A DNA stretch of 40,000 nt from Halosimplex salinum (GTDB lineage: Archaea > Halobacteriota > Halobacteria > Halobacteriales > Haloarculaceae), in the NCBI RefSeq assembly GCF_003730195.1, contig NZ_QWGG01000008.1:84969-124968 (forward strand), given 5' to 3'. The notes beneath the pieces were generated by a model. It worked only from the letters and a program-made list of their open reading frames with translations. It was not told the origin of the DNA and searched no databases. The translations under genes and the position numbers were made by a program. Below, one piece after another: positions 230 through 15,744 of the stretch. Positions within the stretch are counted from its first letter, which is position 1, and every line of letters begins with the position of its first letter.

Positions 230-472
230 ATGACTGACACAGACGTCGAGTACGACGAGAGCGTCGACGCGCGGGGCGCGGCCTGCCCCGGTCCGCTCAT
301 GGACCTCATCGGGAAGATGCGGGACGTCGATTCCGGGACGGTAGTGCGGCTGGTGAGCGACAACGACCGGTCGCTGACCGACGTCCCCGAGTGGGCCGCG
401 GAGGCCGGCAACGACCTGCTCGCGGTCGAAGAGGGCGAGGACCACAACGAGTTCTACGTGGAGAAAGCGTGA
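230..472 (+). CDS. tusA: TusA/SirA-family sulfur carrier protein (80 aa)
   Basis: Internal ATG of the 176..472 ORF (the 176 start is TTG and lies over the promoter box). It has the CPxP active-site motif (AACPGPLMDL) and typical TusA size. Its stop overlaps the GTG of the next gene. Confidence 0.85.
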   Translation: MTDTDVEYDESVDARGAACPGPLMDLIGKMRDVDSGTVVRLVSDNDRSLTDVPEWAAEAGNDLLAVEEGEDHNEFYVEKA

Positions 473-1611
473 CCGAGCACATCGTCGTCGTCGGCGGCGG
501 GACCGGGGGAACCGTGCTCGCGAACGACCTGGCCGACCGGCTGGACGCCGAGATCGACGCCGGTGACGTCCGGGTCAGCCTGATCAACGACGACCCGGAC
601 CACGTGTACAAGCCGGTCTGGCTGTACGTGCCCTTCGGGCAGCGGGAACCGGCGGACGGCCGCCGGCCCCTCGCCGACCTCGTCGACGACCGGGTCGACC
701 TGCGGATCGACCGCGTGACGGAGATCGACACCGACGCGAAGCGGCTCCGCCTCCAGGGGTCGCCCCAGTCGGTGGGGTACGATTACCTCACGCTGGCGAC
801 CGGGTCGACGCTGGCACCGGAGGAGATCCCCGGTCTCGCGGAGGGCGGGCACGACTTCTACAGCGAGTCGGGCGCCACCGCGCTGCGGGAGGAACTGCTC
901 TCGTTCACCGAGGGGACGCTCGTGTTGAGCGTCGTCGGGACGCCGCACATGTGTCCGGCCGCCCCCCTGGAGTTCGTGTTCATGGCCGACAGCTGGTTCC
1001 GCGAGCGCGGGCTCCGAGAGGACGTGGACATCGTGTACACCTACCCCATCCAGCGCGTTCACGGCAACCCCCACATCGCCGAGTGGGCCCGACCGATCAT
1101 GGACGAACGCGGCATCGAGGTCGAGACGTTCTTCAACACCGAAGCGGTCGACCCCGAAGCGCGAACGATCACCTCGATGGAGGGGACCGAACTCGACTAC
1201 GACCTCCTCGTGGACATCCCGCCCCACAGCGGGGTGGACCTGATCGAGGCGGCGGGGCTGGGCGACGGCTGGGTCGACGTCGACAGACATACGCTGGAGG
1301 CCGAGGCCGCCGAGGACGTCTACGCGCTCGGCGACACGGCCGACACGGGCGTCCCCAACGCCGGCAGTGTTGCCCACTACCAGGCGGGCGTCGTCGGGCA
1401 GCGACTCGCCAGCGAGGTTCGCGGGCGGCCGCCCACGGCGACCTACGACGGCAAGACGCTGTGTTTCGTCGAGACGGGGATGGACGCGGCGTCGTTCGTC
1501 GAGTTCGACTACGAAAATCCGCCGTCGCCGGCGCCGCCCTCGGAGAAGCTCCACTGGTCGAAACTGGCGTACAACGAGTCCTACTGGCTGACCGCGCGGG
1601 GGCTGCTCTGA
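469..1611 (+). CDS. FAD-dependent pyridine nucleotide-disulfide oxidoreductase, sulfide:quinone oxidoreductase-like
   Basis: GTG at 469 overlaps the TusA stop (GTGA). N-terminal Rossmann motif HIVVVGGGTGGT is present. Cys residues occur in SQR-like contexts (HMCPAAPLE and TLCFVETG). A DUF1641 gene follows, as is usual for this subfamily. Confidence 0.8.
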   Translation: MTEHIVVVGGGTGGTVLANDLADRLDAEIDAGDVRVSLINDDPDHVYKPVWLYVPFGQREPADGRRPLADLVDDRVDLRIDRVTEIDTDAKRLRLQGSPQSVGYDYLTLATGSTLAPEEIPGLAEGGHDFYSESGATALREELLSFTEGTLVLSVVGTPHMCPAAPLEFVFMADSWFRERGLREDVDIVYTYPIQRVHGNPHIAEWARPIMDERGIEVETFFNTEAVDPEARTITSMEGTELDYDLLVDIPPHSGVDLIEAAGLGDGWVDVDRHTLEAEAAEDVYALGDTADTGVPNAGSVAHYQAGVVGQRLASEVRGRPPTATYDGKTLCFVETGMDAASFVEFDYENPPSPAPPSEKLHWSKLAYNESYWLTARGLL

Positions 1612-1612
1612 G

Positions 1613-2260
1613 ATGTCCGGGGAAGCCACCGTCGCCGACGGCGAGCTCGCGGCGGCCATCGAGGAGAACCCGGAGGCGGTCGCCGCGTTCGTCCGCCGGC
1701 TCGACGGCGTCAACGACCTGCTGGACGTGCTCGCGCTCGGCGAGAGCGCGCTGACCGACGACATGGTCCGGGAGCTCTCGGGCACGACCGCGACGCTCGC
1801 CGAGTCCGCCGACGAGATCGCGACCGACGAGACCGTGGGACTGGCCGGCGCGGTCGGCGACAACGGCGCCGCGCTACAGGACGCCCTCGAATCGCTGGTG
1901 GAACTCCAGCGGACCGGTACCCTCGACGAACTGGTCGAACTCGCCGAGGTGCTGTCGCTGGCCACGGCCGCGCTCGACGACGAGATGGTCCGGTCGCTGG
2001 CCGCCACCGGCGGCTCGCTGGGCGAGCTCGCACAGACCGCGGCCGACGACGACGCGCGAGACGGGATCGAGACGCTGCTGGAGGGCGTCGGTGAGGCCGA
2101 GCGCGAGGACCCCGAACAGGTCGGCCCCGTCGGACTCGTCCGTGCAGTCCGGGACCCGGACGTCCAGTACGGACTCGGCTACCTCCTCGCGCTCGCCGCC
2201 GCCCTCGGCCGGGCTCGATCGGCCGACGCCGCCGAGCACAGCGGCCCTCACCGGCAGTAA
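1613..2260 (+). CDS. DUF1641 domain-containing protein
   Basis: ATG lies 1 nt after the preceding stop. The protein is acidic, Ala/Leu-rich and helical (215 aa), with the pattern I recognise as DUF1641, the usual partner of SQR-like NAD(FAD) dehydrogenases in archaea. Confidence 0.7.
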   Translation: MSGEATVADGELAAAIEENPEAVAAFVRRLDGVNDLLDVLALGESALTDDMVRELSGTTATLAESADEIATDETVGLAGAVGDNGAALQDALESLVELQRTGTLDELVELAEVLSLATAALDDEMVRSLAATGGSLGELAQTAADDDARDGIETLLEGVGEAEREDPEQVGPVGLVRAVRDPDVQYGLGYLLALAAALGRARSADAAEHSGPHRQ

Positions 2261-2447
2261 CCACTCGCGCCAACCCGTATTGTCTAATTCATCCAAGATT
2301 GTTGAAACACGCGGCGCGCCCCCTCGAACCACGAACCACAGCGTGCGCTGACGCGGTCGACGGGGTCGGCGTCGGCGACGTTCGGGGCCGGATCCGAGTC
2401 GCGTCGCTGTCGGTCTCGATTGGTTGGGGACGTACTTGTCCCGAAAA

Positions 2448-2573
2448 TTACTGGCCGTCGACGCCGCCGTCCGCGCGGGTGACGACCGCGGACCCCTGGT
2501 GTTCGAAGCAGACCGCGAGCTCGGTGTCGGGGCCGACGATCCGGCCGGTCGGGCTTCGATCGGTCGGTTCCAT
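2448..2573 (-). CDS. Candidate small protein (41 aa) translationally coupled to DsrE
   Basis: Not in the supplied track (too short). The ATG at 2573-2571 shares its A with the DsrE stop (TGATG). Translation is MEPTDRSPTGRIVGPDTELAVCFEHQGSAVVTRADGGVDGQ, with G/C at about 36 of 41 third positions. TAA at 2450-2448 is followed by a T-run and the GGGAC-N6-GTCCC hairpin. Confidence 0.3.
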   Translation of the reverse strand: MEPTDRSPTGRIVGPDTELAVCFEHQGSAVVTRADGGVDGQ

Positions 2574-3154
2574 CAGACGAGGAGCTGGATGTCGGCGTCG
2601 GCCATGTCCTGGATGGCGGTGGCGGCACCGACGCCGGTGGTGACGCCGTCGTAGAAGTCGGCTTCGTCGTAGTCCATCAACTCGATGGTCATCTGGCAGG
2701 CCTGGAACTCCACGCCCATGTCCAGGCTGGTCTCGATGAGTTCTTCGATGGTGGCCGTCTCGTTGTCGTCGATCCGTTTTTCCATCAGTTTCGTCGTGAC
2801 GCGGTCCATGCCGGGGAGCGCGCCGACGACGTTCGGGACGGGCATGTTGGGGTTGCCGACGGAACTGAGCTGGAGGTCCCTCGACCGTTCCTCGTGGAGG
2901 ATGTCCAGTCCCCAGAACGTGTGGAACACCGTGACCTCGTAGCCGAACGCGGCCGCTGTGCTCGCGAGGATCAGCGGCGGGTAGGCCATGTCGAGGGTGC
3001 CTTTCGTCGCGATGATCGACATCTTCTTGCCGTCGTCGTCGTCGCTGTCGGCGCTCACCGCGGCGAGTTGCTCCTCGAGTTCGTCGACGCGTGCGGCGAG
3101 TTCCGCGCGGGAGGGCGTCTCCTCGGCCGTCGCGTCGGGTGTGTCCGTGCTCAT
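2573..3154 (-). CDS. DsrE/DsrF-like (COG2210-type) sulfur relay protein with acidic N-terminal extension
   Basis: Internal ATG at 3154, 2 nt after the upstream TusA stop; the longer 3352 start would overlap TusA. Conserved blocks are KKMSIIATKGTLDMAYPPLILASTAAA, FHTFWGL and the Cys-containing FQACQMT. Confidence 0.8.
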   Translation of the reverse strand: MSTDTPDATAEETPSRAELAARVDELEEQLAAVSADSDDDDGKKMSIIATKGTLDMAYPPLILASTAAAFGYEVTVFHTFWGLDILHEERSRDLQLSSVGNPNMPVPNVVGALPGMDRVTTKLMEKRIDDNETATIEELIETSLDMGVEFQACQMTIELMDYDEADFYDGVTTGVGAATAIQDMADADIQLLV

Positions 3155-3156
3155 GG

Positions 3157-3402
3157 TCACTCCGTCTTGCGGACGTAGTGTCTGTACACGCCGTCGCCCT
3201 CCTCCTGACTCAGCAGTTCGACACCGGCGGTGCCGTCCGCCCAGCCGGCGATGTCGCTCATGCTGCCGGAGTCGGTCGCCAGCACCTCGAGTACCTCGCC
3301 AGCGGCGAGGTCGTCGATGGCCGACTTGGTTTTCACGACCGGCATGGGGCACGATGCGCCTTTCACGTCCAGCGTCTCCGTAATTTCGTATTCCGAACTC
3401 AT
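3157..3402 (-). CDS. tusA: TusA/SirA-family sulfur carrier protein (81 aa)
   Basis: ATG at 3402 (MSSEYEITETLDVKGASCPMPVV) with the CPxP motif. It sits immediately upstream of DsrE on the same strand. Confidence 0.85.
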   Translation of the reverse strand: MSSEYEITETLDVKGASCPMPVVKTKSAIDDLAAGEVLEVLATDSGSMSDIAGWADGTAGVELLSQEEGDGVYRHYVRKTE

Positions 3403-3424
3403 GGTTGATCCGCTCCGATGTTCT

Positions 3425-3447
3425 GTATTGGAGCTAACGCACAATAC
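3425..3447. promoter_or_regulatory. Inverted repeat GTATTG-N11-CAATAC in the TusA-DsrE promoter
   Basis: 6-bp arms at 3425-3430 and 3442-3447, 23-45 nt upstream of ATG 3402. On the gene strand it reads GTATTGTGC, a 9-mer also present upstream of trxA. Confidence 0.4.
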
Positions 3448-3610
3448 CATGTCGGTCGGTAAAAGATTGTTGATTCTTGTGAGTGGTATAAACAGCCGCT
3501 ATACTGAGGGCGCCGTCGATAGCCTGTGGACCGAGGATCTCGCGAAGCGCGACGAATCGAGCGGAATCTGCTGAAGTAATATTGTATGGTTGGTGGATTT
3601 CTATGCAAAC

Positions 3611-3621
3611 GCTTTTATGCA
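3611..3621 (+). promoter_or_regulatory. TATA-like box for the rhodanese-MBL/YeeE/PiT operon
   Basis: gcttttatgc is centred about 31 nt upstream of ATG 3647. Confidence 0.45.
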
Positions 3622-3646
3622 CCTACCCGGTAGTTGGGAGTACGAA

Positions 3647-4840
3647 ATGAACGCCGAAGACTTCCCGACGCCCGACGTCGACGTCGAGAGCATCGACCCG
3701 GAGACGCTGAAGGGGCGTATCGACGACGGCGAGGACGTCACGCTCCTCGACGCGCGCATGGAATCGGAGTACGACGAGTGGCACATCGACGGCGAGACTG
3801 TCGAATCGATCAACGTCCCGTACTTCCAGTTCCTCGAGGACGAGATCGACGACGCCGTCCTGGAACAGATCCCGGACGACCGCGAGGTCACGGTCCTCTG
3901 TGCGAAGGGCGGCGCCAGCGAGTTCGTCGCCGGTTCCCTGGCCGAGCGCGGCTACGACGTCCACCACCTCGAGGACGGCATGAACGGCTGGGCGAGCATC
4001 TACGAGGCCGTCGAGGTCACCGACTACGACGGCGCCGGCACCCTCCTCCAGTACCAGCGCCCTTCCTCGGGGTGTCTGGGCTACCTGCTGTACGACGACG
4101 GCGAAGCCGCGATCATCGACCCGCTTCGAGCGTTCACCGACCGCTATCTGTCGGACGCTGCCGACCTCGGCGTCGAGCTGAAATACGCGCTCGACACGCA
4201 CGTCCACGCCGACCACATCTCGGGCGTCCGCGACCTCGACGAGGAGGGCGTCGAGGGCGTCATCCCCGCGGCCGCCGTCGACCGCGGCGTCACCTACGCC
4301 GACGAACTGACGACTGCGGAAGACGGCGACACGTTCCAGGTCGGCGACGCGACCATCGAGGTCGTCTACACGCCCGGTCACACGACCGGGATGACCTCCT
4401 ACCTGGTCGACGACAGCCTGCTCGCCACCGGCGACGGCCTCTTCGTCGAGAGCGTTGCTCGCCCCGATCTCGAGGAGGGCGACGAGGGCGCACCCGACGC
4501 CGCGGAGACGCTCTACAAATCGCTCCAGGAGCGCGTGCTCGCGCTCCCCGACGACACGCTCGTCGGCGGCGCCCACTACAGCGACGCCGCGCAACCGGCC
4601 GAGGACGGCACGTACACCGCCTCGATCGGGGGCCTCGTCGACGAGATGGACGCACTCACGATGCAGGCGGGCGACTTCGTGCAGGTCGTCCTGTCCGATA
4701 TGCCGCCCCGTCCGTCCAACTACGAGGAGATCATCGCGACGAATCTCGGGCAGAACGCCGTCGACGACGACGAGGCGTTCACCCTGGAACTCGGCCCGAA
4801 CAACTGCGCGGCGAGCCAGGGCTCGCTCGCGGGTGACTGA
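3647..4840 (+). CDS. Rhodanese domain fused to MBL-fold hydrolase (persulfide dioxygenase-like)
   Basis: ATG 3647 (MNAEDF). The N-terminal rhodanese has catalytic loop LCAKGGAS. The MBL metal motifs are HVHADH, PGHTTG, TGDGLF and GAH. The C-terminal tail carries a lone Cys (GPNNCAAS). Confidence 0.8.
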   Translation: MNAEDFPTPDVDVESIDPETLKGRIDDGEDVTLLDARMESEYDEWHIDGETVESINVPYFQFLEDEIDDAVLEQIPDDREVTVLCAKGGASEFVAGSLAERGYDVHHLEDGMNGWASIYEAVEVTDYDGAGTLLQYQRPSSGCLGYLLYDDGEAAIIDPLRAFTDRYLSDAADLGVELKYALDTHVHADHISGVRDLDEEGVEGVIPAAAVDRGVTYADELTTAEDGDTFQVGDATIEVVYTPGHTTGMTSYLVDDSLLATGDGLFVESVARPDLEEGDEGAPDAAETLYKSLQERVLALPDDTLVGGAHYSDAAQPAEDGTYTASIGGLVDEMDALTMQAGDFVQVVLSDMPPRPSNYEEIIATNLGQNAVDDDEAFTLELGPNNCAASQGSLAGD

Positions 4841-4848
4841 ACGCGACG

Positions 4849-5403
4849 ATGACTGATCCGATCGCACTACAGGCGGCCGCCGAACTGTTCCCGAACGGGG
4901 TCAGTCGCTACGCCGTCGGTGGTCTGCTCGTCGGGCTCGGCGCCGTCGTGATCTACCTCGGGACTGGGATCGCCGCCGGGGCGAGCACCTTCCTCGAGTC
5001 GACGCTGTCGTACGTCTCCGACCAGTCGCGATTCCAGCGATACGTCGCCTCCCGTGACTGGCGAGTCGTCTTCACGCTCGGGATCATCGCGGGTGCCGCG
5101 GTGTTCGCGGCGACGGTCCAGTCCGGCGTGATCACGACCTCGCTCTACGAGGCCGGGTCGACCGGCCAGCTCTACGACGTCGGCGGCGTCACCCTCTGGA
5201 TGACCGACGTCCAGCCCTGGCGGCTGTTCGTCGGGGGCATCCTCGTCGGCATCGGTACCCGGATCGGAAAGGGCTGCACGTCGGGACACGGCGTCTGCGG
5301 GGTCGGATCGGCCTCGAAGACGTCCATCGTCGGTGTGATCACGTTCCTGACGGTGGCCATCGGCACGGCCCAGATAGTGTCCGCGCTGGGGGTGAGTCCG
5401 TAA
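4849..5403 (+). CDS. YeeE/YedE-family sulfur-compound transporter, first half
   Basis: Multi-pass membrane protein with the characteristic GKGCTSGHGVCG block. It starts 8 nt after the preceding stop. Confidence 0.8.
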   Translation: MTDPIALQAAAELFPNGVSRYAVGGLLVGLGAVVIYLGTGIAAGASTFLESTLSYVSDQSRFQRYVASRDWRVVFTLGIIAGAAVFAATVQSGVITTSLYEAGSTGQLYDVGGVTLWMTDVQPWRLFVGGILVGIGTRIGKGCTSGHGVCGVGSASKTSIVGVITFLTVAIGTAQIVSALGVSP

Positions 5404-5404
5404 C

Positions 5405-5863
5405 ATGGCGGACCGTCACCCGCTGTTTATGCCGCTGATACTCGTCGGCGGCCTGATCTTCGGATTCGGGCTCGGCTTCAGCCAGATGGCCCGCCCGGAG
5501 GTCGTGCTGGATTTCCTCCAGTTCGAGGACTTCGGCCTGCTGTTCGTCATGTTCGGTGCCGCAATCGTCTCCGGGGTCGCCTTCGCGGTGATGCCGCGGG
5601 TCCGCGACCGCGCCCCGCTGACCGGCGACGCCTACGAGCGCCGCCTGAAGTCCTTCGACCGGAACGTGCTGGTCGGGGGCGCGATATTCGGCGTCGGCTG
5701 GGGGCTGTCGGGCATCTGTCCCGGCGCCGCCTACGCCAGCCTCGGCACCGGAAACGTCGCGATCCTCTGGGCGCTCGCCGGGATGTTCGTCGGCGCGTAC
5801 CTCCAGGGGTACTGGCGGAGTCACACCGCAGACACGGACGCCGCCACCTCGGCCGCGGACTGA
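5405..5863 (+). CDS. YeeE/YedE-like membrane protein, second half (DUF6691-type)
   Basis: Starts 1 nt after the previous stop. It has four hydrophobic segments and GWGLSGICPG, typical of the partner subunit. Confidence 0.75.
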   Translation: MADRHPLFMPLILVGGLIFGFGLGFSQMARPEVVLDFLQFEDFGLLFVMFGAAIVSGVAFAVMPRVRDRAPLTGDAYERRLKSFDRNVLVGGAIFGVGWGLSGICPGAAYASLGTGNVAILWALAGMFVGAYLQGYWRSHTADTDAATSAAD

Positions 5864-5884
5864 CAGTTCACGACCTGCTCACTG

Positions 5885-7066
5885 ATGGAACTCTCACTCC
5901 TCGCGCTGTTTCTGATCGCCGGACTGGCGAGTCTGTTCATGGCGTGGGTCATCGGTGCGGGATCGAGCGGCGCGACGCCGTTCGCACCCGCCGTCGGTGC
6001 CAACGCCATCTCGACGATGCGGGCCGCGCTCGTCGTCGGCGTCCTCGGGCTCGCCGGCGCCGTCACGCAGGGCGCGAACGTCTCCGAGGCCGTCGGTCGC
6101 GGCCTGATCGGAGGCGTGACGCTGCCGGTGACGGGCGTCATCACCGTCCTGCTGATCGGAGCCGGACTCATGGCGATCGGTATCAGGACCGGGTACCCCA
6201 TCGCGACGGCGTTCACCGTCACCGGCTCGGTGATCGGCGTCGGACTCGCGCTCGGCGGCTCGCCCGTCTGGCCGAAGTACCTGGAGATCGGCACCGTCTG
6301 GGTCCTGACGCCGTTCGTCGGCGGCGGCATCGCCTACGCCATCGCCAGCGTCCTCCCCCGCCCGGACGTCCCGGAACGGTACAGCATCGCGCTGCTGGCG
6401 GGCGTCGTCGCGGCGGTCCTCGCGAACGTCGAGTTCGGCTTCCTCGGTCCGGGCGGGTCTGCGGGCTCGCTCGCGACGGCTCTCCGGCGCTTCCTGGGCC
6501 TGGAGACCACGGTCGCACTGGCGGCGATCACGGTGTTCGTGGCCGTGACCGTCGGCGTCGTCGTCTCGTGGGACATCCGTCGCGACGAGGCGGGCGGGCT
6601 CAGGCGAGTGCTGCTCTCGCTCGGCTCACTCGTCGCGTTCTCCGCGGGCGCCAGCCAGGTCGGGCTCGCTGTCGGGCCGCTCCTCCCGATCCTCGACGAC
6701 ACGCTGGTCACGTCGTTCGCCGTCCTCGTCGGGGGCGGCCTCGGGATCCTCGTCGGCTCGTGGACGGGCGCGCCGCGGATGATCAAGTCGCTGGCGCGGG
6801 ACTACTCCTCGCTCGGACCGCGGCGGTCGATCGCCGCACTGGTCCCGTCGTTCCTGATCGCCCAGCTCGCCGTCCTGCTCGGCGTCCCCGTGTCGTTCAA
6901 CGAGATCGTCGTCAGCGCGATAATCGGGAGCGGCGCAGCCGTCGGTGGCAGTGACGCGATCAGCGCGAGAAAGATACTCGTGACCGTCGGTGCGTGGCTG
7001 GCGTCGTTCGGAGTGGCGTTCGTCCTCGGCTACGGATCGATTGTCGTCCTGACGACCGTGTCGTAG
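5885..7066 (+). CDS. PiT (PHO4) family inorganic anion permease
   Basis: 393-aa polytopic membrane protein. The N-terminus AWVIGAGSSGATPFAPAVGANAIS and the repeated C-terminal half are typical of archaeal PiT transporters. It is the last gene of the 3647-7066 operon. Confidence 0.7.
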   Translation: MELSLLALFLIAGLASLFMAWVIGAGSSGATPFAPAVGANAISTMRAALVVGVLGLAGAVTQGANVSEAVGRGLIGGVTLPVTGVITVLLIGAGLMAIGIRTGYPIATAFTVTGSVIGVGLALGGSPVWPKYLEIGTVWVLTPFVGGGIAYAIASVLPRPDVPERYSIALLAGVVAAVLANVEFGFLGPGGSAGSLATALRRFLGLETTVALAAITVFVAVTVGVVVSWDIRRDEAGGLRRVLLSLGSLVAFSAGASQVGLAVGPLLPILDDTLVTSFAVLVGGGLGILVGSWTGAPRMIKSLARDYSSLGPRRSIAALVPSFLIAQLAVLLGVPVSFNEIVVSAIIGSGAAVGGSDAISARKILVTVGAWLASFGVAFVLGYGSIVVLTTVS

Positions 7067-7155
7067 CCCTCGCGGACTCTCCTCCCCGGAATCCGCTCGT
7101 TCGTCGACCGACAACCGAACTGGACTCCCGCTCCGGCCGGACTCGTGGATACGAT

Positions 7156-7170
7156 TGTACGGATCGTACA
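7156..7170. promoter_or_regulatory. Perfect palindrome TGTACG-GAT-CGTACA upstream of the TrmB-type regulator gene
   Basis: 6-3-6 palindrome lying just upstream of the TATA-like tcttatac (7175-7182), 43-57 nt upstream of ATG 7213. Confidence 0.5.
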
Positions 7171-7212
7171 CAAGTCTTATACCCGCGAATTACGTAGGTC
7201 CCTGCGATACCG

Positions 7213-7617
7213 ATGCCAGATTCGATGTCTGAACAACTCAGGCAGGACATGGTCTGTGAGGGACTCCTCGAGTGTTTCCACGGACTGAAAGAACTCGACA
7301 AGGAGTGTTTCCGGGCGCTCGTAGAGACCGGCGAGCCGCTCACAGTCGACGAACTCGCCGAGGCCGTCGACCGCGAGCGATCGACCGCCTATCGCGCCGT
7401 CCAGCGACTTCTCCAGGCCGGGTTCATCCAGAAAGAGCAGGTCAACTACGACCAGGGCGGGTACTACCACGTGTACAGACCGACTGACCCCGCGCAGATC
7501 GCCGACGACATGCAGCGAATGCTCAACGAGTGGTACGCCAAGATGGGACAGCTCATCCAGGAGTTCGAGGACAAGTACGAACGCGAAGACGCGGCGGCGC
7601 CGTCCGTCGAAGGCTGA
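7213..7617 (+). CDS. Small TrmB-type winged-helix transcriptional regulator
   Basis: 134 aa. The ECFHGLKELDKECFRALVETGEPLTVDELAEAVDRERSTAYRAVQRLLQAGFI pattern is typical of haloarchaeal TrmB-like HTH proteins. The C-terminal region is helical. Confidence 0.75.
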   Translation: MPDSMSEQLRQDMVCEGLLECFHGLKELDKECFRALVETGEPLTVDELAEAVDRERSTAYRAVQRLLQAGFIQKEQVNYDQGGYYHVYRPTDPAQIADDMQRMLNEWYAKMGQLIQEFEDKYEREDAAAPSVEG

Positions 7618-7644
7618 CTGCGCGACTGTTCGAACCGTTCACTC

Positions 7645-7655
7645 CCTCGTTTTGG
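7645..7655 (+). terminator. T-run after the regulator gene
   Basis: ctcgttttgga lies about 30 nt after stop 7617. Archaeal terminators are oligo-T tracts. Confidence 0.3.
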
Positions 7656-7747
7656 ACTCTCCGACAGAGCCACCGGTCAACCGCTGTCAATAGTATTGTG
7701 CAAAACACCCAAAACCCTTAACTACTGGTGGCGCGTACGAACTGACG

Positions 7748-8107
7748 ATGACAGCAGATACCGCAGCCGACGCGAGTGCAGTGACTCCGACCGAGCCCGT
7801 CCACGTCGACGGCGGTGACGAACTCGACGAACTCGTCGCCGAGAGCGGCGTCGTCCTCGCGGACTTCTACGCCGACTGGTGTGGCCCCTGCCGGATGCTC
7901 GAGCCGGTCGTCGAGACCCTCGCCGAGGAGACGGACGCGGCCGTCGCGAAGATAGACGTCGACGCCAACCAGCCCCTCGCCGGGACCTACGGCGTCCGCG
8001 GCGTCCCGACGCTCGTCCTGTTCGCCGACGGTGAGCAGGTCGAGGAGATGGTCGGGGTGCAGGGCGAAGACCAGTTGCGCTCGGTGATCGAGCGGTACAC
8101 CGAATAG
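7748..8107 (+). CDS. trxA: Thioredoxin
   Basis: WCGPC active site, 119 aa. A TATA-like ccttaacta lies about 28 nt upstream. Confidence 0.9.
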   Translation: MTADTAADASAVTPTEPVHVDGGDELDELVAESGVVLADFYADWCGPCRMLEPVVETLAEETDAAVAKIDVDANQPLAGTYGVRGVPTLVLFADGEQVEEMVGVQGEDQLRSVIERYTE

Positions 8108-9145
8108 ATGAGCGACGTGCACGACCTCGTCGTCGCCGGATCGGGCGTCGCAGGCCTCTCGGCGGCCGTCTACGCCGCCCGCGCCGACCTCGACCCCCTC
8201 GTCCTCGAGGGCGACGAGCCGGGCGGCCAGCTGACGCTCACGACCGACGTCGAGAACTACCTCGGCTTCCCCGACGGTGTCGGCGGGATGGAGCTGATCC
8301 AGCGCGGGAGAGACCAGGCCGAGCGGTTCGGCGCCGAGTTCCGCCATGGCAGCATCGAAGCGGCCGACCTCGACGGACGGCCGATGGAACTCTCGCTCTC
8401 GACGGGCGAGACGCTCCGTACTCGCGCGCTCGTCGTCGCGACGGGCGCCAGCGCCCGCTGGGTCGGTGCGGACGGCGAAGACGAACTGATGGGCTACGGC
8501 CTCTCGACGTGTGCGACCTGCGACGGCGCGTTCCACAGGGGCGACGACGTGCTCGTCGTCGGCGGCGGCGACAGCGCGATGGAGGAGGCGCTCTTCCTCG
8601 CGAAGTTCGCCGATTCGGTCACCGTCCTCCACCGCCGTGCGGACCTCCGTGCGTCGGAGATCATGGCCGAGCGCGCACGCGAACACGACGACATCGAGTT
8701 CGCCTGGAACACGGAACTCGTGGCCATCCACGGGTCGACCGAGGAGGGCGTCACCGGCGCGACGGTCGTCTCGCATCCCGACGGACATCCGGCGGAGACG
8801 TACGAGGCCGGCGGCGACGTCACGATGGACGAACTCGACGTCGGCGGCGTGTTCTACGCGATCGGACACGAGCCCAACACCGAGTTCTTCCGGGACACCG
8901 CGGTCGAACTCGACGACAGCGGGTACGTACAGACCGCCGGCGGAGGCGACGCGTGGGCGACGACGGAGACGGCGGTCGACGGCGTCTTCGCCGCCGGTGA
9001 CGTGATGGACCCCGACTACCAGCAGGCGGTCACTGCCGCCGGCACGGGGAGCATGGCCGCACTCGACGCCGAAACGTGGCTCGAGGCGGCCCCGCTCGAC
9101 TCGGCCCAGCCCGCAGTTCCGGTCCCCTCGGAGGCCGACGACTGA
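8108..9145 (+). CDS. trxB: Thioredoxin-disulfide reductase
   Basis: ATG directly follows the trxA TAG. Motifs are GSGVAGLSAA (FAD), the CATCDG redox centre and VVGGGDSAMEEA (NADPH). Confidence 0.9.
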   Translation: MSDVHDLVVAGSGVAGLSAAVYAARADLDPLVLEGDEPGGQLTLTTDVENYLGFPDGVGGMELIQRGRDQAERFGAEFRHGSIEAADLDGRPMELSLSTGETLRTRALVVATGASARWVGADGEDELMGYGLSTCATCDGAFHRGDDVLVVGGGDSAMEEALFLAKFADSVTVLHRRADLRASEIMAERAREHDDIEFAWNTELVAIHGSTEEGVTGATVVSHPDGHPAETYEAGGDVTMDELDVGGVFYAIGHEPNTEFFRDTAVELDDSGYVQTAGGGDAWATTETAVDGVFAAGDVMDPDYQQAVTAAGTGSMAALDAETWLEAAPLDSAQPAVPVPSEADD

Positions 9146-9534
9146 TGGGAACGACGGACAGGCGCGAGCGCAACCTGACCGACCCGTCGACCGTCGAGGA
9201 CCAGGCGGACCGAGTCGTCGTCTCGTTTCGGTCACCGGAGACCGACCCCGACGAGGACGACAACTGGTGGGTCGCCGACAGCGAGTGGCTCCGGGAGAAC
9301 ATGACGGAACACACCTATCGGCGCTACCTCCGGTGGGCCCACGCCGGGCCGGTCTCCGTCGGCGACGAGTGGGAGGAGTTCGTCAACTGCGGCTGTGCGA
9401 GCCCGGAGGACGTGATCCTGCGCGTCGAGCAGGTCGACGGCGGCTCCGGCATCGGGTCGGAGACGACCATCGACGTCGTGCCACGCAGGGACGTCCTCGG
9501 GACCGGAACGCCGGCCCCGGACCCGGTCGAGTGA
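9145..9534 (+). CDS. Hypothetical acidic protein (129 aa) with a CGC motif, coupled to trxB
   Basis: ATG 9145 shares its A with the trxB TGA (TGATG). Third-position G/C bias is strong and I recognise no family. It is Trp-rich (NWWVADSEWL) and has vicinal cysteines in FVNCGCASPED. Confidence 0.6.
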   Translation: MGTTDRRERNLTDPSTVEDQADRVVVSFRSPETDPDEDDNWWVADSEWLRENMTEHTYRRYLRWAHAGPVSVGDEWEEFVNCGCASPEDVILRVEQVDGGSGIGSETTIDVVPRRDVLGTGTPAPDPVE

Positions 9535-9575: not shown

Positions 9576-9962
9576 TCAGAGTTCGCTCAGAACCCGCTCG
9601 AACCGCTCGGAGACGTCGCCGGAGATCCCGTCGAGCTCCGGGTTGTCGGCGATTCCGACCAGCTCTGACGGGTCGACCGCGCTCACCGTGACCGCGCCGT
9701 CGTCGGTCTCGTAGACGACGACGTTGCACGGGAGGAGCGCACCCAGTTCGATCTCCGCTTCGAGCCCCTGGAAGGCGAGTTCGGGGTTGCACGCGCCGAG
9801 GATTCGATACCGGCGGAACTCTCTGTCGAGCTTCTCCGCGAACGTCGCCTGCACGTCGATGTCGCAGAGGACGCCGAAGCCCTCGTCTTCCAGCGCGGCG
9901 ACCGTCTGATCGACGACGTCGTCGAACGAGCCGCTGACACGCTTTTGGGTAGTATATGCCAT
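9576..9962 (-). CDS. DUF302 domain-containing protein
   Basis: Blocks GFGVLCDIDVQATFAEKL, YRILGACNP and LLPCNVVVYE match the DUF302 fold family. ATG 9962 is preferred over GTG 9971. Confidence 0.8.
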   Translation of the reverse strand: MAYTTQKRVSGSFDDVVDQTVAALEDEGFGVLCDIDVQATFAEKLDREFRRYRILGACNPELAFQGLEAEIELGALLPCNVVVYETDDGAVTVSAVDPSELVGIADNPELDGISGDVSERFERVLSEL

Positions 9963-10030
9963 ACTATACACGATAACCTGGACAGTGATGACTGTTGGGG
10001 CGCTCGGCGGGGTCGAAATAGGTGAATTTC

Positions 10031-10963: not shown

Positions 10964-11158
10964 ACGGCCCGTCCGGTCCGCTCCGACCCGACCGCCGGCG
11001 ACGGCCGCAACGACTCGGCATCGATCGCTCAAGGAAATTTGAGTTACGTCGCTGTCAAGTGTAAGAAAAATAACAATACTTATCCCGGCCTGCAGCCTCT
11101 CTGTAGCGTATGCGTGACGACAGACATATCGAGGACGGGACGGTCTGGAGGGTCCTGA

Positions 11159-12079
11159 ATGGCCGCGATTGAGATCGACGGTCTGACGAAACGGTTCGGA
11201 GAGGTCGTCGCCGTCGACGGACTCGACCTGACCGTCGAGGACGGGGAGATATTCGGGTTTCTGGGACCGAACGGCGCCGGGAAGTCGACGACGATCGACA
11301 TCCTGCTCGATTTCATTCGACCGACCGAGGGGTCCGTGACCGTCCTCGGTCACGACGCACAGAGCGAGGGCGAGGCCGTCCGGAGACGGACTGGGGTGTT
11401 GCCCGACGCCTACCACGTCTACGACCGGCTCACCGGCCGGCAGCACGTCGAGTTCGCCATCGAGATGAAAGACGTCGCCGAGGACCCGATGGCGCTGCTC
11501 GACCGGGTGGGGATCGCGGACTCCGCCCACCGGAAGGCCGGCGGGTATTCGAAGGGGATGCGCCAGCGGCTCGTCCTCGCGATGGCGCTCGTCGGCGACC
11601 CCGACTTGCTCGTCCTCGACGAGCCCTCCACCGGGCTGGACCCCAACGGCGCCCGAGAGATGCGTGACATCATCCGTCAGGAGAACGACCGCGGGACGAC
11701 GGTGTTCTTCTCCAGTCACGTGATGGAGCAGGTCGAGGCGGTCTGCGACCGCGTCGCGATCATCGACCGCGGCCAACTCGTCGCCGTCGACACGATCGAC
11801 GGGCTCCGTGACGCGACGGAGACGGGCGAGATCCTGTACGTCTACGTCACCGACCTCGACGACGGGACGGTCGATTCGGTCTCGAGACTCGACGGGGTCG
11901 GTTCCGCCTCGGTCCACGACGGACGGCTCCGCGTCTCCGTCGACGGCGTGTCGAAGTTCGCTGTCCTGCACGCCATCGACGAGTCCGTCGTCCCCGTGCA
12001 GGACTTCTCGGTCGTCGAGTCCTCGCTGGAGGACCTGTTCGTCCGGTACACCGCCGAGGAACGGGAGGGGACGGCATGA
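11159..12079 (+). CDS. ABC transporter ATP-binding protein (ABC-2 subtype)
   Basis: Walker A GPNGAGKST, signature YSKGMRQRL, Walker B LLVLDEP. The AT-rich promoter region at 11030-11090 lies upstream. Confidence 0.9.
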   Translation: MAAIEIDGLTKRFGEVVAVDGLDLTVEDGEIFGFLGPNGAGKSTTIDILLDFIRPTEGSVTVLGHDAQSEGEAVRRRTGVLPDAYHVYDRLTGRQHVEFAIEMKDVAEDPMALLDRVGIADSAHRKAGGYSKGMRQRLVLAMALVGDPDLLVLDEPSTGLDPNGAREMRDIIRQENDRGTTVFFSSHVMEQVEAVCDRVAIIDRGQLVAVDTIDGLRDATETGEILYVYVTDLDDGTVDSVSRLDGVGSASVHDGRLRVSVDGVSKFAVLHAIDESVVPVQDFSVVESSLEDLFVRYTAEEREGTA

Positions 12080-12948
12080 CGTGGCTGATCGTCGCGAAGA
12101 AGGACTTCCGTGACGCCGTCCAGTCGCGGGCGCTCTGGGCGCTCGTCGTCGGCTTCGTCCTGCTGTCGCTGCTCTCGACGTACGCCTACGTCGAAGTCCC
12201 GGAGATGTTCGGCGAGCCGGGCGGCGCCACGTTCACGGGCCTGCTGTTTTTCACCGTCGGACTCACCGGGCTGTTCGTCCCGCTGGCCGCGATCGTGGTC
12301 TGCTACAAGTCGCTCGCGGGGGAGCGGGAACTCGGCAGCATCAAACTGCTGCTCTCGTTGCCGACGAACCGGGGCAGCGTGTTCGCCGGGAAGGTCGCCG
12401 GGCGCGCGGCGGTCCTGGCGTTCGGTCTCGGCGTCGGCATCGCGGTCGGCCTCCTGGTCGGAACCGTCCTGCTCGGCGAGGTCGACGCCGTCGGAGCGCT
12501 GGTATTCCTGCTCGTGACGCTGGTGTTCGGGGCGGTGTACGCCACCATCGTGGTCGGGCTCTCGGCGACGACGGGGTCGACGTCGCGCGCGACGACGCTG
12601 GCGCTCGGGTTCTTCGTCGTCTTCGAACTGTTCTGGGACACGATCCCGATGGGGTTCCTGTACGTCGCCGAGGGGTTCTCGATGCCGTCGACGTTCCCCG
12701 ACTGGTTCTACTTCCTCACACAGCTCTCGCCGTCCTCGGCGTACCTCTCGACGGTCGTCGCACTGGTCCCGGAACTCGGCGACGCGGCCGTCGGCGACGC
12801 GTCCGGGGCGGGTGCCGGCGTCGAGGTGAGCCAGACCGGCGTCGACCCGTTCTACCTGTCGCCCGAGATGGGCATCGTCGTCCTCGCCGCCTGGTTCGTC
12901 GTCCCCTTCGTCGTCGGCTACTACCGATTCGACGCCGCCGACCTCTGA
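12076..12948 (+). CDS. ABC-2 family transporter permease
   Basis: ATGA overlap with the ATPase gene. It is a 6-TM hydrophobic protein of the NosY/ABC-2 type. Confidence 0.8.
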   Translation: MTWLIVAKKDFRDAVQSRALWALVVGFVLLSLLSTYAYVEVPEMFGEPGGATFTGLLFFTVGLTGLFVPLAAIVVCYKSLAGERELGSIKLLLSLPTNRGSVFAGKVAGRAAVLAFGLGVGIAVGLLVGTVLLGEVDAVGALVFLLVTLVFGAVYATIVVGLSATTGSTSRATTLALGFFVVFELFWDTIPMGFLYVAEGFSMPSTFPDWFYFLTQLSPSSAYLSTVVALVPELGDAAVGDASGAGAGVEVSQTGVDPFYLSPEMGIVVLAAWFVVPFVVGYYRFDAADL

Positions 12949-14187: not shown

Positions 14188-14295
14188 GCGTTCTCGTCGA
14201 CGCGACCGGCCGAGACCGCCCATAAACCTTGTCGTATCCGTCGCCAGCGTGTAATCCGGCGTGGACGTATTGGATCGAGGCGCGAACGGTCGCAC

Positions 14296-15744
14296 ATGGA
14301 CGACAAGACAGGAGTGTCCAGCAGCCTGCGGGAGACGTTAGAGCGCCACCGTCGCGGCAGCGAGTCGGACGGGACGCTCGTGCTCAGCGACCAGGAGGGG
14401 TACGTCGGCGACACGATCACCCTCAAGGGCCGCAACTTCCCCGCGGACGAGAGCTACGACCTGCTCTGGAACTCGACCGAGGGGCGCTGGGGCGTGCTGG
14501 AGGCCAACGAGATCGTCGGCCCGCAGTACCAGCCCCGCACCGACACGATCGCGACGGTCCGAACGGACGAGTCCGGGGCGTTCGACGAGGAGTGGACGGT
14601 CCCCGAAGACTACGGCGGCGCACACCGGATCCAGGTCCAGAACGGCGACGGGAACGTCGTGGCGCGCGCGGAGTTCTCGATCACGCCGTGGTTCGAGATC
14701 GACCGCACCGAGGCCCCGCTGGGCGAGGCGTTCACGATCACCGGCTACGGGATCGGTCCGAACGTCGTCACCAACAACTACCAGGTGTCGTGGGACAACG
14801 GCAACGTCGGGTTCGTGACCGGCGTGATGAACCGCGGGACCGCGACCGCCGAGATCCGGGCGGTCGGCCCGCCGGGCGAGCACGTGATCCAGGTGTGGCG
14901 CAACTACAAGGGCGTCCCGTACCTCCAGAACAACACGCAGTCGCCGTACGGCCCCGTCGCGGGCGGTCGACAGTCGGTCTGGACCGTCGAGGTGACCGAA
15001 CCCGACGACGACCCGCGGACCGCCTGGGTCGACCCGCTGCTGGACGAGAAGCCGATGAGCGTCCACTACCCAGAACTCGACGCGGACACCGAGGCCACCC
15101 TCGATATCTCCCCGACCTCGGGGCAGGCGGGCACGACCGCCTTCCTCACCGGCACCGACTTCCCGCCCGAGACCGAGGTCGACCTGATCTGGTACCGCCA
15201 CGAGGGCCACCGGGTCAAGGGGATCCCGATCACGCCGGAGGCGAAACCGGACGTGCTCCCGACCGTGACCACCGACGAGGACGGGAGCTTCCAGGTCGAG
15301 ATCGCCATCCCCCGCGAAGAGGGGTCGACCCGTCCGATCACCGCCGCCGTCGACGGTCGCGAGGTCGCGGTGACCGGCTTCATGATGCAGCCGTCGATCG
15401 AGACGTTCGCGCCCGTCAGGGGCCCGGTCGGCACGGAGATCGAGATCGAACTCTCCGGCATCGGCTGGACGATCTACGAGAACGCCCCGTTCTTCGTCTA
15501 CGACAACACGCCGCTGGGCTACGTCTGCGGGACCGCCGGCGACGACAAGCAGGGGACCGTCCGCGCGAAGCTCCGGGCCGCCGGCGAACCGGGCTACCAC
15601 TTCATCGACATCTACCCCAGCCTCTTCGACATGCAGGAGGAGAAACCCGAGTTCGACGTCAGACCCCACCTGTCGTACCTCGACAACCACCCGGTCCGGC
15701 CGCTCCCGGCCCTGCACATGGCCTTCGAGGTCACCGAGGAGTGA
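14296..15744 (+). CDS. Cytoplasmic protein built from a duplicated two-domain Ig-like (IPT/TIG-like) beta-sandwich module
   Basis: 482 aa with no signal peptide or TM segment. Residues about 27-235 and 268-445 align with each other (see findings). The content is beta-rich and acidic. Confidence 0.7.
   Translation: MDDKTGVSSSLRETLERHRRGSESDGTLVLSDQEGYVGDTITLKGRNFPADESYDLLWNSTEGRWGVLEANEIVGPQYQPRTDTIATVRTDESGAFDEEWTVPEDYGGAHRIQVQNGDGNVVARAEFSITPWFEIDRTEAPLGEAFTITGYGIGPNVVTNNYQVSWDNGNVGFVTGVMNRGTATAEIRAVGPPGEHVIQVWRNYKGVPYLQNNTQSPYGPVAGGRQSVWTVEVTEPDDDPRTAWVDPLLDEKPMSVHYPELDADTEATLDISPTSGQAGTTAFLTGTDFPPETEVDLIWYRHEGHRVKGIPITPEAKPDVLPTVTTDEDGSFQVEIAIPREEGSTRPITAAVDGREVAVTGFMMQPSIETFAPVRGPVGTEIEIELSGIGWTIYENAPFFVYDNTPLGYVCGTAGDDKQGTVRAKLRAAGEPGYHFIDIYPSLFDMQEEKPEFDVRPHLSYLDNHPVRPLPALHMAFEVTEE

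Follow-up and report, generated by a model that had tools for sequence, protein, structure and literature searches.

The DNA analysed here is a 40,000-nucleotide window of Halosimplex salinum (contig NZ_QWGG01000008.1, positions 84,969 to 124,968), and its left end carries a cluster of sulfur-related genes at 230-9534. An open reading frame (ORF) listing with translation recovered 13 genes there, which a first-pass annotation had described as a Cst-like island for handling sulfide and persulfide. We consider it probable that the cluster is a modular regulon for handling sulfide, persulfide and polysulfide in aerobic haloarchaea, composed of five transcription units: tusA1-sqr-DUF1641, tusA2-dsrE2, rhd-PDO-yeeE-yeeE-PiT, the regulator gene, and trx-trxR with a small ORF. 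Family memberships, conserved catalytic residues, synteny and a shared, conserved promoter element are read directly from the DNA; the function we infer from homology and gene context. The genes, with two accompanying ORFs, are laid out as follows (window positions; E values from Pfam searches; SQR, sulfide:quinone oxidoreductase; MBL, metallo-beta-lactamase; Rhd, rhodanese; Trx, thioredoxin; TrxR, thioredoxin reductase).

230-472, + strand: TusA1 sulfur carrier (TusA, 1.6e-17; Cys19 in CPGP)
469-1611, + strand: SQR-like flavoprotein, 380 amino acids (aa) (GTG start; 4-nt GTGA overlap with the tusA1 stop; Pyr_redox_2, 3.7e-19)
1613-2260, + strand: DUF1641 protein, 215 aa (DUF1641, PF07849, 1.2e-13, residues 163-200)
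2448-2573, - strand: HalOD1 remnant ORF, 41 codons (its ATG overlaps the dsrE2 stop by 1 nt)
2573-3154, - strand: DsrE2-type (COG2210) carrier (DrsE_2, 1.2e-49; Cys153 in ACQM)
3157-3402, - strand: TusA2 carrier, first gene of the leftward operon (TusA, 7.6e-22; Cys18 in CPMP)
3647-4840, + strand: rhodanese-MBL (Rhd-MBL) fusion (Rhodanese, 2.1e-12; Lactamase_B, 8.5e-13)
4849-5403, + strand: half-size YeeE/YedE protein (YeeE_A), PmpA/YedE-type (Sulf_transp profile positions 176-305, the C-terminal half)
5405-5863, + strand: half-size YeeE/YedE protein (YeeE_B), PmpB-type (DUF6691, 1.3e-20; Sulf_transp positions 7-106, the N-terminal half)
5885-7066, + strand: divergent PiT/PHO4 anion permease (PHO4, PF01384, 1.6e-44, residues 28-382)
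7213-7617, + strand: TrmB-type regulator, 134 aa (TrmB, 1.5e-17, residues 19-93)
7748-8107, + strand: thioredoxin with WCGPC (Thioredoxin, 7.3e-27)
8108-9145, + strand: TrxR-type flavoprotein with CATC (Pyr_redox_2, 1.4e-42)
9145-9534, + strand: small uncharacterised ORF (1-nt overlap with the trxR stop; translationally coupled)
9576-9971, - strand: DUF302 protein, a possible peripheral member (1.4e-24)

The Pfam matches of the cluster proteins all exceed the gathering score and, together with the ORF coordinates, bear out the 13 genes and families first listed; the small ORF at 9145-9534 gave no match in the Pfam search. The motifs that the first-pass annotation had quoted are all present: CPGP, HMCPAAP (C162), TLCFVETG (C332), CPMP, ACQM (C153), CAKGGAS (C85) and HVHADH (185-190). 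Their cysteines are invariant in all relatives recovered. The coupling of tusA1 to the SQR gene also stands, with the GTG start at 469 forming the overlap.

We scanned one genome per species, obtaining 80 loci in which neighbours were called by tblastn with the window proteins. On Rhd-MBL identity, 51 loci are orthologous (at least 53%) and 29 paralogous (43-51%). Several of the 51 are short contigs, so the neighbour counts are lower bounds. The core, with tusA2-dsrE2 on one side of a divergent control region and the genes for the Rhd-MBL fusion and two YeeE proteins (rhd-PDO-yeeE-yeeE; PDO, persulfide dioxygenase) on the other, recurs in 44-47 of them across many haloarchaeal genera. This recurrence of gene order indicates that the grouping is not due to chance. 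Neighbours in the orthologous loci were as follows.

TusA2: 47/51
DsrE2: 46/51
YeeE_A: 46/51
YeeE_B: 44/51
PiT, after yeeE: 25/51
Regulator: 19/51
Trx: 16/51
TusA1-SQR-DUF1641 triad, always all three: 14/51
DUF302: 9/51
TrxR: 6/51
Small uncharacterised ORF: 1/51, and one plasmid

Gene neighbourhood is thus conserved in the core; the SQR and Trx modules are found with it less often. The earlier picture of a single 9.3-kb island survives in part: the genes are clustered around a co-conserved core, and what they form is modular rather than one fixed island. The window shows one compact arrangement of that modular system. In the 29 paralog loci, Rhd-MBL stands alone, without TusA, DsrE2 or YeeE neighbours. 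Both Rhd-MBL clades occur in some genomes, for example Natrinema thermotolerans (L007, L054), and a second Rhd-MBL copy (P0003), 95% identical, lies on the same Halosimplex salinum contig outside the window.

The cluster is carried by 87 haloarchaeal plasmid records, including pNRC100 and pNRC200 of Halobacterium NRC-1, and Haloarcula hispanica is also a carrier. On pNRC200 (L081, 342-358 kb), dsrE2-tusA has the cytochrome bd genes cydAB as immediate neighbours; past PiT come a rhodanese, a major facilitator superfamily (MFS) transporter, TauE, the regulator and trxA, with a TATA-binding protein (TBP) gene 5 kb away. A match to the same region is found on pNRC100. A Halomicrobium urmianum plasmid (L082) holds a near-complete copy, including the small uncharacterised ORF after trxR, and adds a class V aminotransferase, HalOD1, a universal stress protein and TauE. 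Rhd-MBL proteins are 85-87% identical across genera and even orders, which, together with the frequent plasmid locations, suggests horizontal spread.

A promoter element links the modules. The 40-kb window has four copies of TATTGTR where 0.25 would be expected, and every one of them lies in the tusA1, tusA2, rhd-PDO or trx promoter. The control features are as follows.

188-201, - strand: candidate operator of tusA1, TACAATA (reverse complement TATTGTA), with an abutting TATA-like box TTAATAC, 36-42 nt upstream of tusA1
3403-3646: divergent control region (footprint from 45 loci)
3423-3447: conserved block CTGTATTGGAGCTAACGCACAATAC, on the tusA2 side of the divergent region
3460-3465: tusA2 TATA box TAAAAG, with TGTTGATTCTTGTG, divergent region
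3580-3586: TATTGTA, upstream of rhd-PDO
3599-3610: conserved block TTCTATGCAAAC, divergent region
3612-3618: rhd-PDO TATA box CTTTTAT, divergent region
7153-7182, + strand: regulator promoter, GATTGTACGGATCGTACACAAG and TATA box CTTATAC (footprint from 21 loci)
7694-7722, + strand: trx promoter, TATTGTG at 7694-7700 and transcription factor B recognition element (BRE)/TATA box CCCAAAACCCTTAAC at 7708-7722

The element is conserved in sequence and in position. Among the fetched loci, TATTGTR lies upstream of tusA2 in 47/48, of rhd-PDO in 44/51 and of trx in 12/18, and of its 209 occurrences 125 lie no more than 260 nt upstream of a cluster gene. Cluster loci carry 20.8 copies per 100 kb, as against 2.2 in the paralog loci, which are largely devoid of it. 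The spacing between element and start codon is constant across three genera (54 nt for trx, 38 nt for tusA2); the 54-nt trx spacing is identical in Halobacterium NRC-1 and Halomicrobium urmianum, and the tusA1 spacing is the same in the latter (L082: element at 3959, ATG at 4001). In the divergent region (45 loci), cTGTATTGGaGcTAnCnCACAATA is nearly invariant directly downstream of the tusA2 TATA box, and gTATTGt lies upstream of the rhd-PDO TATA box. The tusA1 footprint conserves the block CACAAtAtTAATAc with the promoter motif CACAATATTAATAC; the regulator footprint reads GATTGTgCga.c..TaCACAAGTCTTTTAA, with conserved blocks GATTGTGC...TACACAAG; and the trx footprint has GTATTGTGCA upstream of CCAAAACCCTTAA. 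Because they share this element, the SQR, core and Trx modules are best read as one regulon, and the element provides independent support for their co-regulation.

An inverted repeat at 3425-3447 (GTATTG-N11-CAATAC) was considered as an RNA hairpin and rejected: changes in its arms are not consistently compensatory across the 45 loci (for example L010 and L024), and the loop is equally conserved. A DNA site is more likely. In other genomes, TATTGTR also precedes genes for TauE, a universal stress protein, DUF302, a class V aminotransferase and a CoA-disulfide-reductase-like protein. Near the cluster, DUF302 genes have it upstream in 7/9 loci, and several Halorubrum loci pair the DUF302 gene with a second Cys-x5-Cys protein, a paralog of the regulator; the window DUF302 gene has no TATTGTR motif upstream. 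Within the window, GTATTGT/GTATTGG also occurs at 11073-11079 (- strand) and 14267-14273 (+ strand), upstream of an ABC-2 operon (11159-12948) and a TIG-domain gene (14296-15744). These copies may be chance matches or additional members of the regulon.

The flavoprotein is most likely a type III-like SQR, with predicted sulfide-dependent quinone reduction. Its best NCBIfam match is SQR_III_seleno (2.4e-98, 329.7 bits), an "exception" model for a selenoprotein subtype whose 525-bit cutoff it does not reach. Against the Protein Data Bank (PDB), human SQOR comes first (2e-41), followed by Aquifex and bacterial SQRs and flavocytochrome c sulfide dehydrogenases (FCSD), with NDH-2 at approximately 1e-5; by type, type II comes before type I, then FCSD and type V, with NDH-2 far behind. 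The SQR-like placement made at first pass is upheld by these matches, and the flavoprotein did not fall with NDH-2. The FAD-binding GxGxxG fold is kept (VVVGGGTGG, residues 6-14). C162 and C332 align with the human SQOR cysteines (VKCAGAP and YTSCPLVTG) and are invariant in 15/15 orthologs. The C-terminus is ~30-50 residues shorter than in the type III profile or human SQOR, the profile match stopping ~50 positions early, and the tail has 23 residues versus 54 in SQOR. This shortening is consistent with dependence on a membrane tether.

The DUF1641 protein is a putative tether of this kind. Its gene starts 2 nt past the sqr stop and lies beside sqr in 14/14 sqr-bearing loci, and on plasmids; the protein has 625 haloarchaeal relatives. 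An AlphaFold2 (AF2) monomer model built with 30 orthologs is all-helical and of low confidence (pLDDT 51.9, pTM 0.27). DUF1641 proteins such as HucM, ForE and Ncp/YjlC act as scaffolds for enzymes that reduce quinone, anchoring them at the membrane and serving as conduits for the quinone (PMC13524794; PMC8808070). By analogy, the haloarchaeal protein may be both a quinone conduit and a membrane tether for SQR. The Ndh-Ncp pair has been reported from Bacillota only (PMC13524794), and the portions available to us of the open-access literature on DUF1641 appear to describe no SQR partner. TusA1 accompanies SQR and DUF1641 in 14/14 loci. Its Cys19 is invariant (15/15), and it is 32% identical to TusA2.

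The second pair of sulfur carriers belongs to the core. DsrE2 matches its NCBIfam model at 2.3e-46, below cutoff; its Cys153 is invariant in 48/48 sequences, and Cys18 of TusA2 in 49/49. In three loci (L026, L030 and L039), TusA and DsrE2 are fused in a single 163-aa ORF, which favours the view that the two carriers are direct functional partners.

Across the divergent region, the Rhd-MBL protein comprises a rhodanese domain (residues 1-120, Cys85), an MBL domain (~130-311) and a C-terminal tail with the invariant sequence ELGPNNC387A. The closest solved relatives of the MBL domain, at ~1e-23 to 1e-17, are PDOs (9rhq; ETHE1, 4chl, 7e-21; Arabidopsis 2gcu; 4ysb; BpPRF 5ve3), whose matches run from 8e-23 to 4e-17, together with 3tp9 and 3r2u, two MBL-rhodanese proteins. 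Glyoxalase II structures match at ~1e-10 (4e-10) or weaker; NCBIfam alone places GloB models first, far below cutoff (65.7 vs 200.8 bits). HVHADH (185-190), PGHT (243-246) and TGD (261-263) align with THCHADH, SPGHT and TGD of ETHE1 (4chl). These positions, in which the His of HxHxDH, the His of PGH and the Asp of TGD are the iron ligands of PDOs, are conserved in 81 sequences. The domain did not turn out to be a glyoxalase II lacking PDO residues and is most likely PDO-like, with predicted O2-dependent oxidation of persulfide to sulfite. The PDO architecture proposed at first pass is therefore right as to relatives and residues; the domain order differs, since the rhodanese is N-terminal, the reverse of 3tp9. 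Rhodanese-PDO fusions are common in sqr-pdo operons (PMC9163753). C85, C143 and C387 are invariant in the 81 Rhd-MBL sequences, stand-alone paralogs included. C143 lies in SSGCLG (residues 140-145, window 4064-4081) and C387 in ELGPNNCA (383-388, window 4793-4810); the solved PDOs matched offer no counterpart that would explain either.

Transport genes follow. As first noted, YeeE/YedE is split: two adjacent half-size proteins match the C- and N-terminal halves of the family, and each has conserved cysteines (YeeE_A Cys143 in 47/47 and Cys150 in 46/47; YeeE_B Cys105 in 46/46). A class of split transporters, PmpAB, corresponds to the N- and C-terminal halves of YeeE (PMC11582611), and YedE1E2, which has an essential cysteine, feeds zero-valent sulfur to a PDO (PMC10812762). 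The PiT permease weakly matches the CysP sulfate permease (2.1e-19); sulfite, thiosulfate or sulfate are candidate substrates. By eye, GAGSSGATPF and PVSFNE stand at what we take to be the GANDxxN/STTH phosphate-signature segments, and their alteration suggests a substrate other than phosphate. We considered phosphate uptake and set it aside as unlikely, given the operon position and these altered segments; the PHO4 profile itself is compatible with it. The idea that PiT takes the place of TauE did not hold, as relatives carry both, and PiT is an addition to TauE.

The regulator is archaeal and TrmB-type, as the first-pass annotation had it. Besides its Pfam TrmB match, it matches the NCBIfam models Sta1 (2.3e-19) and Lrs14 (4.9e-11) and, in the PDB, 3r0a (6e-11) and the Lrs14-like 6cmv; its C21 aligns with a cysteine of 3r0a. 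Judged by sequence, it belongs to the OxsR/Lrs14 family of TrmB proteins with a single winged helix-turn-helix (wHTH) domain (arCOG02242). Cys15-x5-Cys21 is kept in 28 of 29 aligned relatives (orthologs and paralogs), the exception being an incomplete row. OxsR of Haloferax volcanii (HVO_2970) is a thiol-based TrmB factor that forms an intersubunit disulfide at C24 on hypochlorite stress, recognises a CG-rich motif and controls thiol-relay genes; its paralog HVO_1360, reported with C15 and C21, is uncharacterised (PMC9426492). The window protein is plausibly a thiol/persulfide switch that works through Cys15 and Cys21, and we hypothesise that persulfide is what it senses.

The Trx module lies downstream. 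Its catalytic cysteines are conserved in 20/20 Trx and 7/7 TrxR relatives. The pair and its coupling to a third ORF are as first described, with the qualification that this ORF is rarely conserved. Its family is very small, with 59 representatives in 1.84 billion proteins; the members are ~65-135 aa long, most of them 80-115 aa. In the alignment, E78, F79, G83 and C84 are invariant within the motif GDEWxEFVxxGC, and an ortholog follows trxR in L031 and L082.

The rest of the window is unrelated. It encodes a DUF7347/7351 regulator, an ABC-2 transporter, a Bat-type regulator, an ETF-QO-like protein and a P-type ATPase, which sets the right edge of the cluster near 9.5-10 kb. On the left, the window begins 229 nt upstream of tusA1. 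Inside the cluster, the 312-nt gap between dsrE2 and DUF1641 holds the HalOD1 remnant and a GTATTGT at 2277. In Halomicrobium urmianum (L082), dsrE2 is followed by a gene for a 75-aa HalOD1 protein. The remnant matches both termini of this protein and looks like an internally deleted copy. A mobile island, in the sense of a mobile element, is unsupported: the window contains no tRNA genes, GC content stays at 65-72% along its length and shows no deviation in the cluster, and there is no integrase or transposase among the window proteins scanned. A scan for sigma-70 promoters and intrinsic terminators was set aside as inapplicable to archaeal promoters.

Taken together, the genes suggest the following route. 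SQR would oxidise H2S, pass the electrons to the membrane quinone pool and form cysteine-bound sulfane sulfur, with the DUF1641 protein tethering the short-tailed enzyme to the membrane and conducting quinone. TusA1, translationally coupled to SQR, would take the persulfide, and the tusA2-dsrE2 pair would pass persulfide sulfur through the cytoplasm. The fused rhodanese would load or unload persulfide, which the non-heme-iron PDO would oxidise with O2 to sulfite; sulfite and persulfide could then yield thiosulfate. The half-size YeeE pair might move zero-valent sulfur or thiosulfate across the membrane, and the divergent PiT might move an oxyanion product. Trx, TrxR and the small Cys protein would reduce persulfidated or oxidised protein thiols and reset the sensor. 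That sensor, the OxsR-family regulator, would respond through a Cys15/Cys21 disulfide or polysulfide bridge and act on the TATTGTR element common to the promoters.

Several findings weigh against this interpretation. The open-access literature searched holds no expression, biochemical or genetic data for any haloarchaeal copy. The sole characterised member of the regulator's family, OxsR, responds to hypochlorite through C24 and recognises a CG-rich motif (PMC9426492), and exact TATTGTR is found upstream of the regulator gene in only 2/20 loci and of tusA1 in only 5/14. TATTGTR, being AT-rich, could instead be a promoter element for a specific pair of TBP and transcription factor B (TFB), rather than an operator. 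A DUF1641 search of PDB sequences returned chance coiled-coil matches and no solved chain, the AF2 model is too poor for comparison with Ncp or HucM, and the 23-residue SQR tail, possibly amphipathic, may allow the enzyme to bind the membrane unaided. Furthermore, sqr is adjacent in just 14/51 loci, which implies that the core can work without a linked SQR. To our knowledge haloarchaea lack glutathione, which makes the thiol co-substrate of the PDO a puzzle. YedE1E2 has been shown to import, not export, zero-valent sulfur (PMC10812762), and for this reason the YeeE pair fits uptake as well as detoxification.

This last point leads to an alternative in which the cluster acquires sulfur rather than detoxifying it, with YeeE and TusA importing thiosulfate or zero-valent sulfur in the manner of TsuA/TsuB, PiT importing sulfate or thiosulfate in the manner of CysP, and rhodanese and Trx/TrxR releasing sulfide for cysteine and cofactors. 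Thiosulfate import by YeeE/TsuA with a TusA-like partner is described in one report (PMC11073785), and zero-valent sulfur import by YedE1E2 in another (PMC10812762). The similarity of PiT to CysP, the cysteine-desulfurase-like class V aminotransferase with a TATTGTR motif in relatives' clusters, and the presence of a Trx system fit the same scheme. Yet SQR and an O2-dependent PDO work oxidatively and use up reduced sulfur; the YeeE pair belongs with the split PmpAB/YedE1E2 transporters found alongside pdo and not with full-length TsuA; and TusA2 matches the TsuB/YeeD model at just 2e-4. Related loci carry TauE and cytochrome bd, and the window proteins scanned include neither a sulfite reductase nor a cysteine synthase. 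We regard acquisition as unlikely. A selenium function was also considered and rejected: the matches of TusA to YedF, of a YeeE half to the YedE selenium transporter and of the flavoprotein to "Nterm_to_SelD" are weak and all far below cutoff, and PDO, DsrE2 and rhodanese have no selenium link.

The remaining alternatives concern the signal and the benefit. The genes might form a general regulon for thiol-oxidative (hypochlorite or disulfide) stress, in which an OxsR-like redox sensor would turn on a Trx system and proteins of thiol repair and sulfide would not be the physiological signal, given that the characterised OxsR/arCOG02242 member is hypochlorite-responsive and controls thiol-relay genes, and that Trx/TrxR and universal stress protein genes carry TATTGTR. 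Against this, nine of the structural genes encode proteins dedicated to the chemistry or transport of sulfane sulfur, and the C15-x5-C21 pattern and DNA motif are unlike those of OxsR. Bacterial persulfide sensors cross-react with oxidants, so an oxidant response would be compatible with a sulfur role; we think such a regulon quite improbable. Energy-conserving lithoheterotrophy, in which SQR-DUF1641 would feed sulfide electrons to the respiratory chain as a supplementary energy source while the other genes clear the sulfur product, draws on the reduction of quinone by SQR, the cytochrome bd genes that adjoin the cluster in Halobacterium, the description of DUF1641 scaffolds as expanding respiratory capacity (PMC13524794) and the energy that Methylacidiphilum gains from H2S via type III SQR (PMC10205796). 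However, the PDO step conserves no energy, the window proteins scanned show no match to Sox, sHdr, rDsr or sulfite dehydrogenase, and SQR is missing from most core loci. We consider it very unlikely, and it overlaps the sulfide- and persulfide-handling regulon favoured here rather than excluding it.

A more specific proposal goes beyond that regulon, and we advance it tentatively, as possible but rather short of an even chance. In it, the regulator would be the first archaeal persulfide/polysulfide sensor, governing a TATTGTR regulon of five or more operons, SQR and DUF1641 would form a quinone-channelling complex, and TusA1 would be a dedicated persulfide acceptor. If true, the regulator would be a fifth, evolutionarily independent solution beside the bacterial CstR, BigR/SqrR and FisR, and the quinone-conduit principle of DUF1641 would extend from bacterial NADH, formate and H2 oxidation to archaeal sulfide oxidation. 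Sulfide and persulfide stress responses are well understood in bacteria and mitochondria; we found no characterised haloarchaeal system or sensor. The cluster is widespread, and its carriers include two model organisms, Halobacterium salinarum NRC-1 and Haloarcula hispanica. Given its candidate sensor, its candidate operator of fixed geometry and its defined gene set, the sensing and clearance of reactive sulfur by archaea become testable by standard genetics. The cluster is also a natural setting in which to ask whether SQR-type enzymes are served by DUF1641 scaffolds, and which thiol stands in for glutathione as PDO co-substrate. Taken singly, its components are unsurprising; what is specific, testable and apparently undescribed is the candidate sensor together with its operator, and the pairing of SQR with DUF1641.

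Comparison with known systems places the cluster among bacterial sulfide-oxidation operons. The cst and sqr-pdo logic first invoked is supported, with the families of SQR, PDO with rhodanese, carriers, transporter and Cys-containing regulator all confirmed. The cst operon is a sulfide oxidation system regulated by reactive sulfur species (RSS) (PMC7315123). The logic shared with it stands; the BigR-controlled yeeE-yedE-pdo2 and type III sqr-tusA-dsrE2 operons are at least as close. The Staphylococcus aureus cst system (CstR, TauE, CstA, CstB, SQR) resembles the window in having SQR, a PDO with rhodanese, TusA and DsrE functions, an anion transporter and a Cys-based regulator, and the S. aureus MBL-family protein 3r2u matches the window MBL domain at 3.9e-18. 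In CstA, TusA and DsrE are fused with rhodanese. The window has separate TusA and DsrE2 genes in place of this multidomain protein (rhodanese-TusA-DsrE); its rhodanese precedes the PDO and an extra invariant C-terminal Cys follows, whereas CstB is a PDO followed by a rhodanese. Its SQR is type III-like rather than type II, and its regulator TrmB/OxsR-type rather than CsoR-type, there being no CsoR-family match among the window proteins scanned. Relative to cst, it adds split YeeE, PiT, DUF1641 and Trx/TrxR.

BigR, a dithiol persulfide sensor, controls yeeE-yedE-pdo2 in Acinetobacter and Serratia (PMC7315123). As in the window, a PDO there adjoins two half-size YeeE/YedE proteins (PMC7315123; PMC10812762). 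Blh of the Xylella and Agrobacterium bigR-blh operons is a sulfurtransferase-dioxygenase fusion with the transferase N-terminal (PMC5823870). Rhd-MBL shares this domain order and matches NCBIfam NF040641 at 2.9e-13 (49.5 bits, against a 625-bit cutoff). Unlike the window regulator, BigR is an ArsR-family repressor, and BigR operons lack the TusA/DsrE2 pair, SQR-DUF1641 and the Trx module. In Methylacidiphilum fumariolicum, a type III sqr-tusA-dsrE2 operon (MFUM_v2_0219-21) is up-regulated by H2S (PMC10205796). The likeness, judged from the description, lies in an SQR (type III there, type III-like in the window) encoded with TusA and DsrE2. That operon is single and bacterial, and its description mentions no DUF1641, PDO, YeeE or dedicated regulator (PMC10205796).

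Two further comparisons concern individual parts. In the DUF1641 complexes Ndh-Ncp (YjlD-YjlC), ForCE and Huc-HucM, as in the window, the gene right after that of a quinone-reducing enzyme codes for a small protein whose DUF1641 domain is C-terminal. Ndh belongs to the same superfamily of flavoproteins with two dinucleotide-binding domains as SQR (YjlD, 9pxk, matches the window SQR at 1.2e-5). The known partners are NDH-2, formate dehydrogenase and hydrogenase, whereas in the window the putative partner is SQR. OxsR and HVO_1360 are, like the window regulator, single-wHTH TrmB proteins of arCOG02242 with Cys in the N-terminal helix, and the C15/C21 positions reported for HVO_1360 are equal to those of the window regulator. 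In contrast to the C24 and CG-rich motif of OxsR, the window regulator has a C-x5-C pair and AT-rich ATTGT-type elements. Cytochrome bd, encoded beside the cluster in Halobacterium, is reported to be refractory to sulfide, and TauE to be a sulfite/thiosulfate exporter (PMC7315123). The earlier statement that no characterised haloarchaeal equivalent is known agrees with the open-access literature searched, in which none was found. What sets the cluster apart from the bacterial systems is its OxsR-family regulator, the AT-rich element, the SQR-DUF1641 pairing, PiT, Trx/TrxR with a small Cys protein, and the Cys-containing tail of its PDO.

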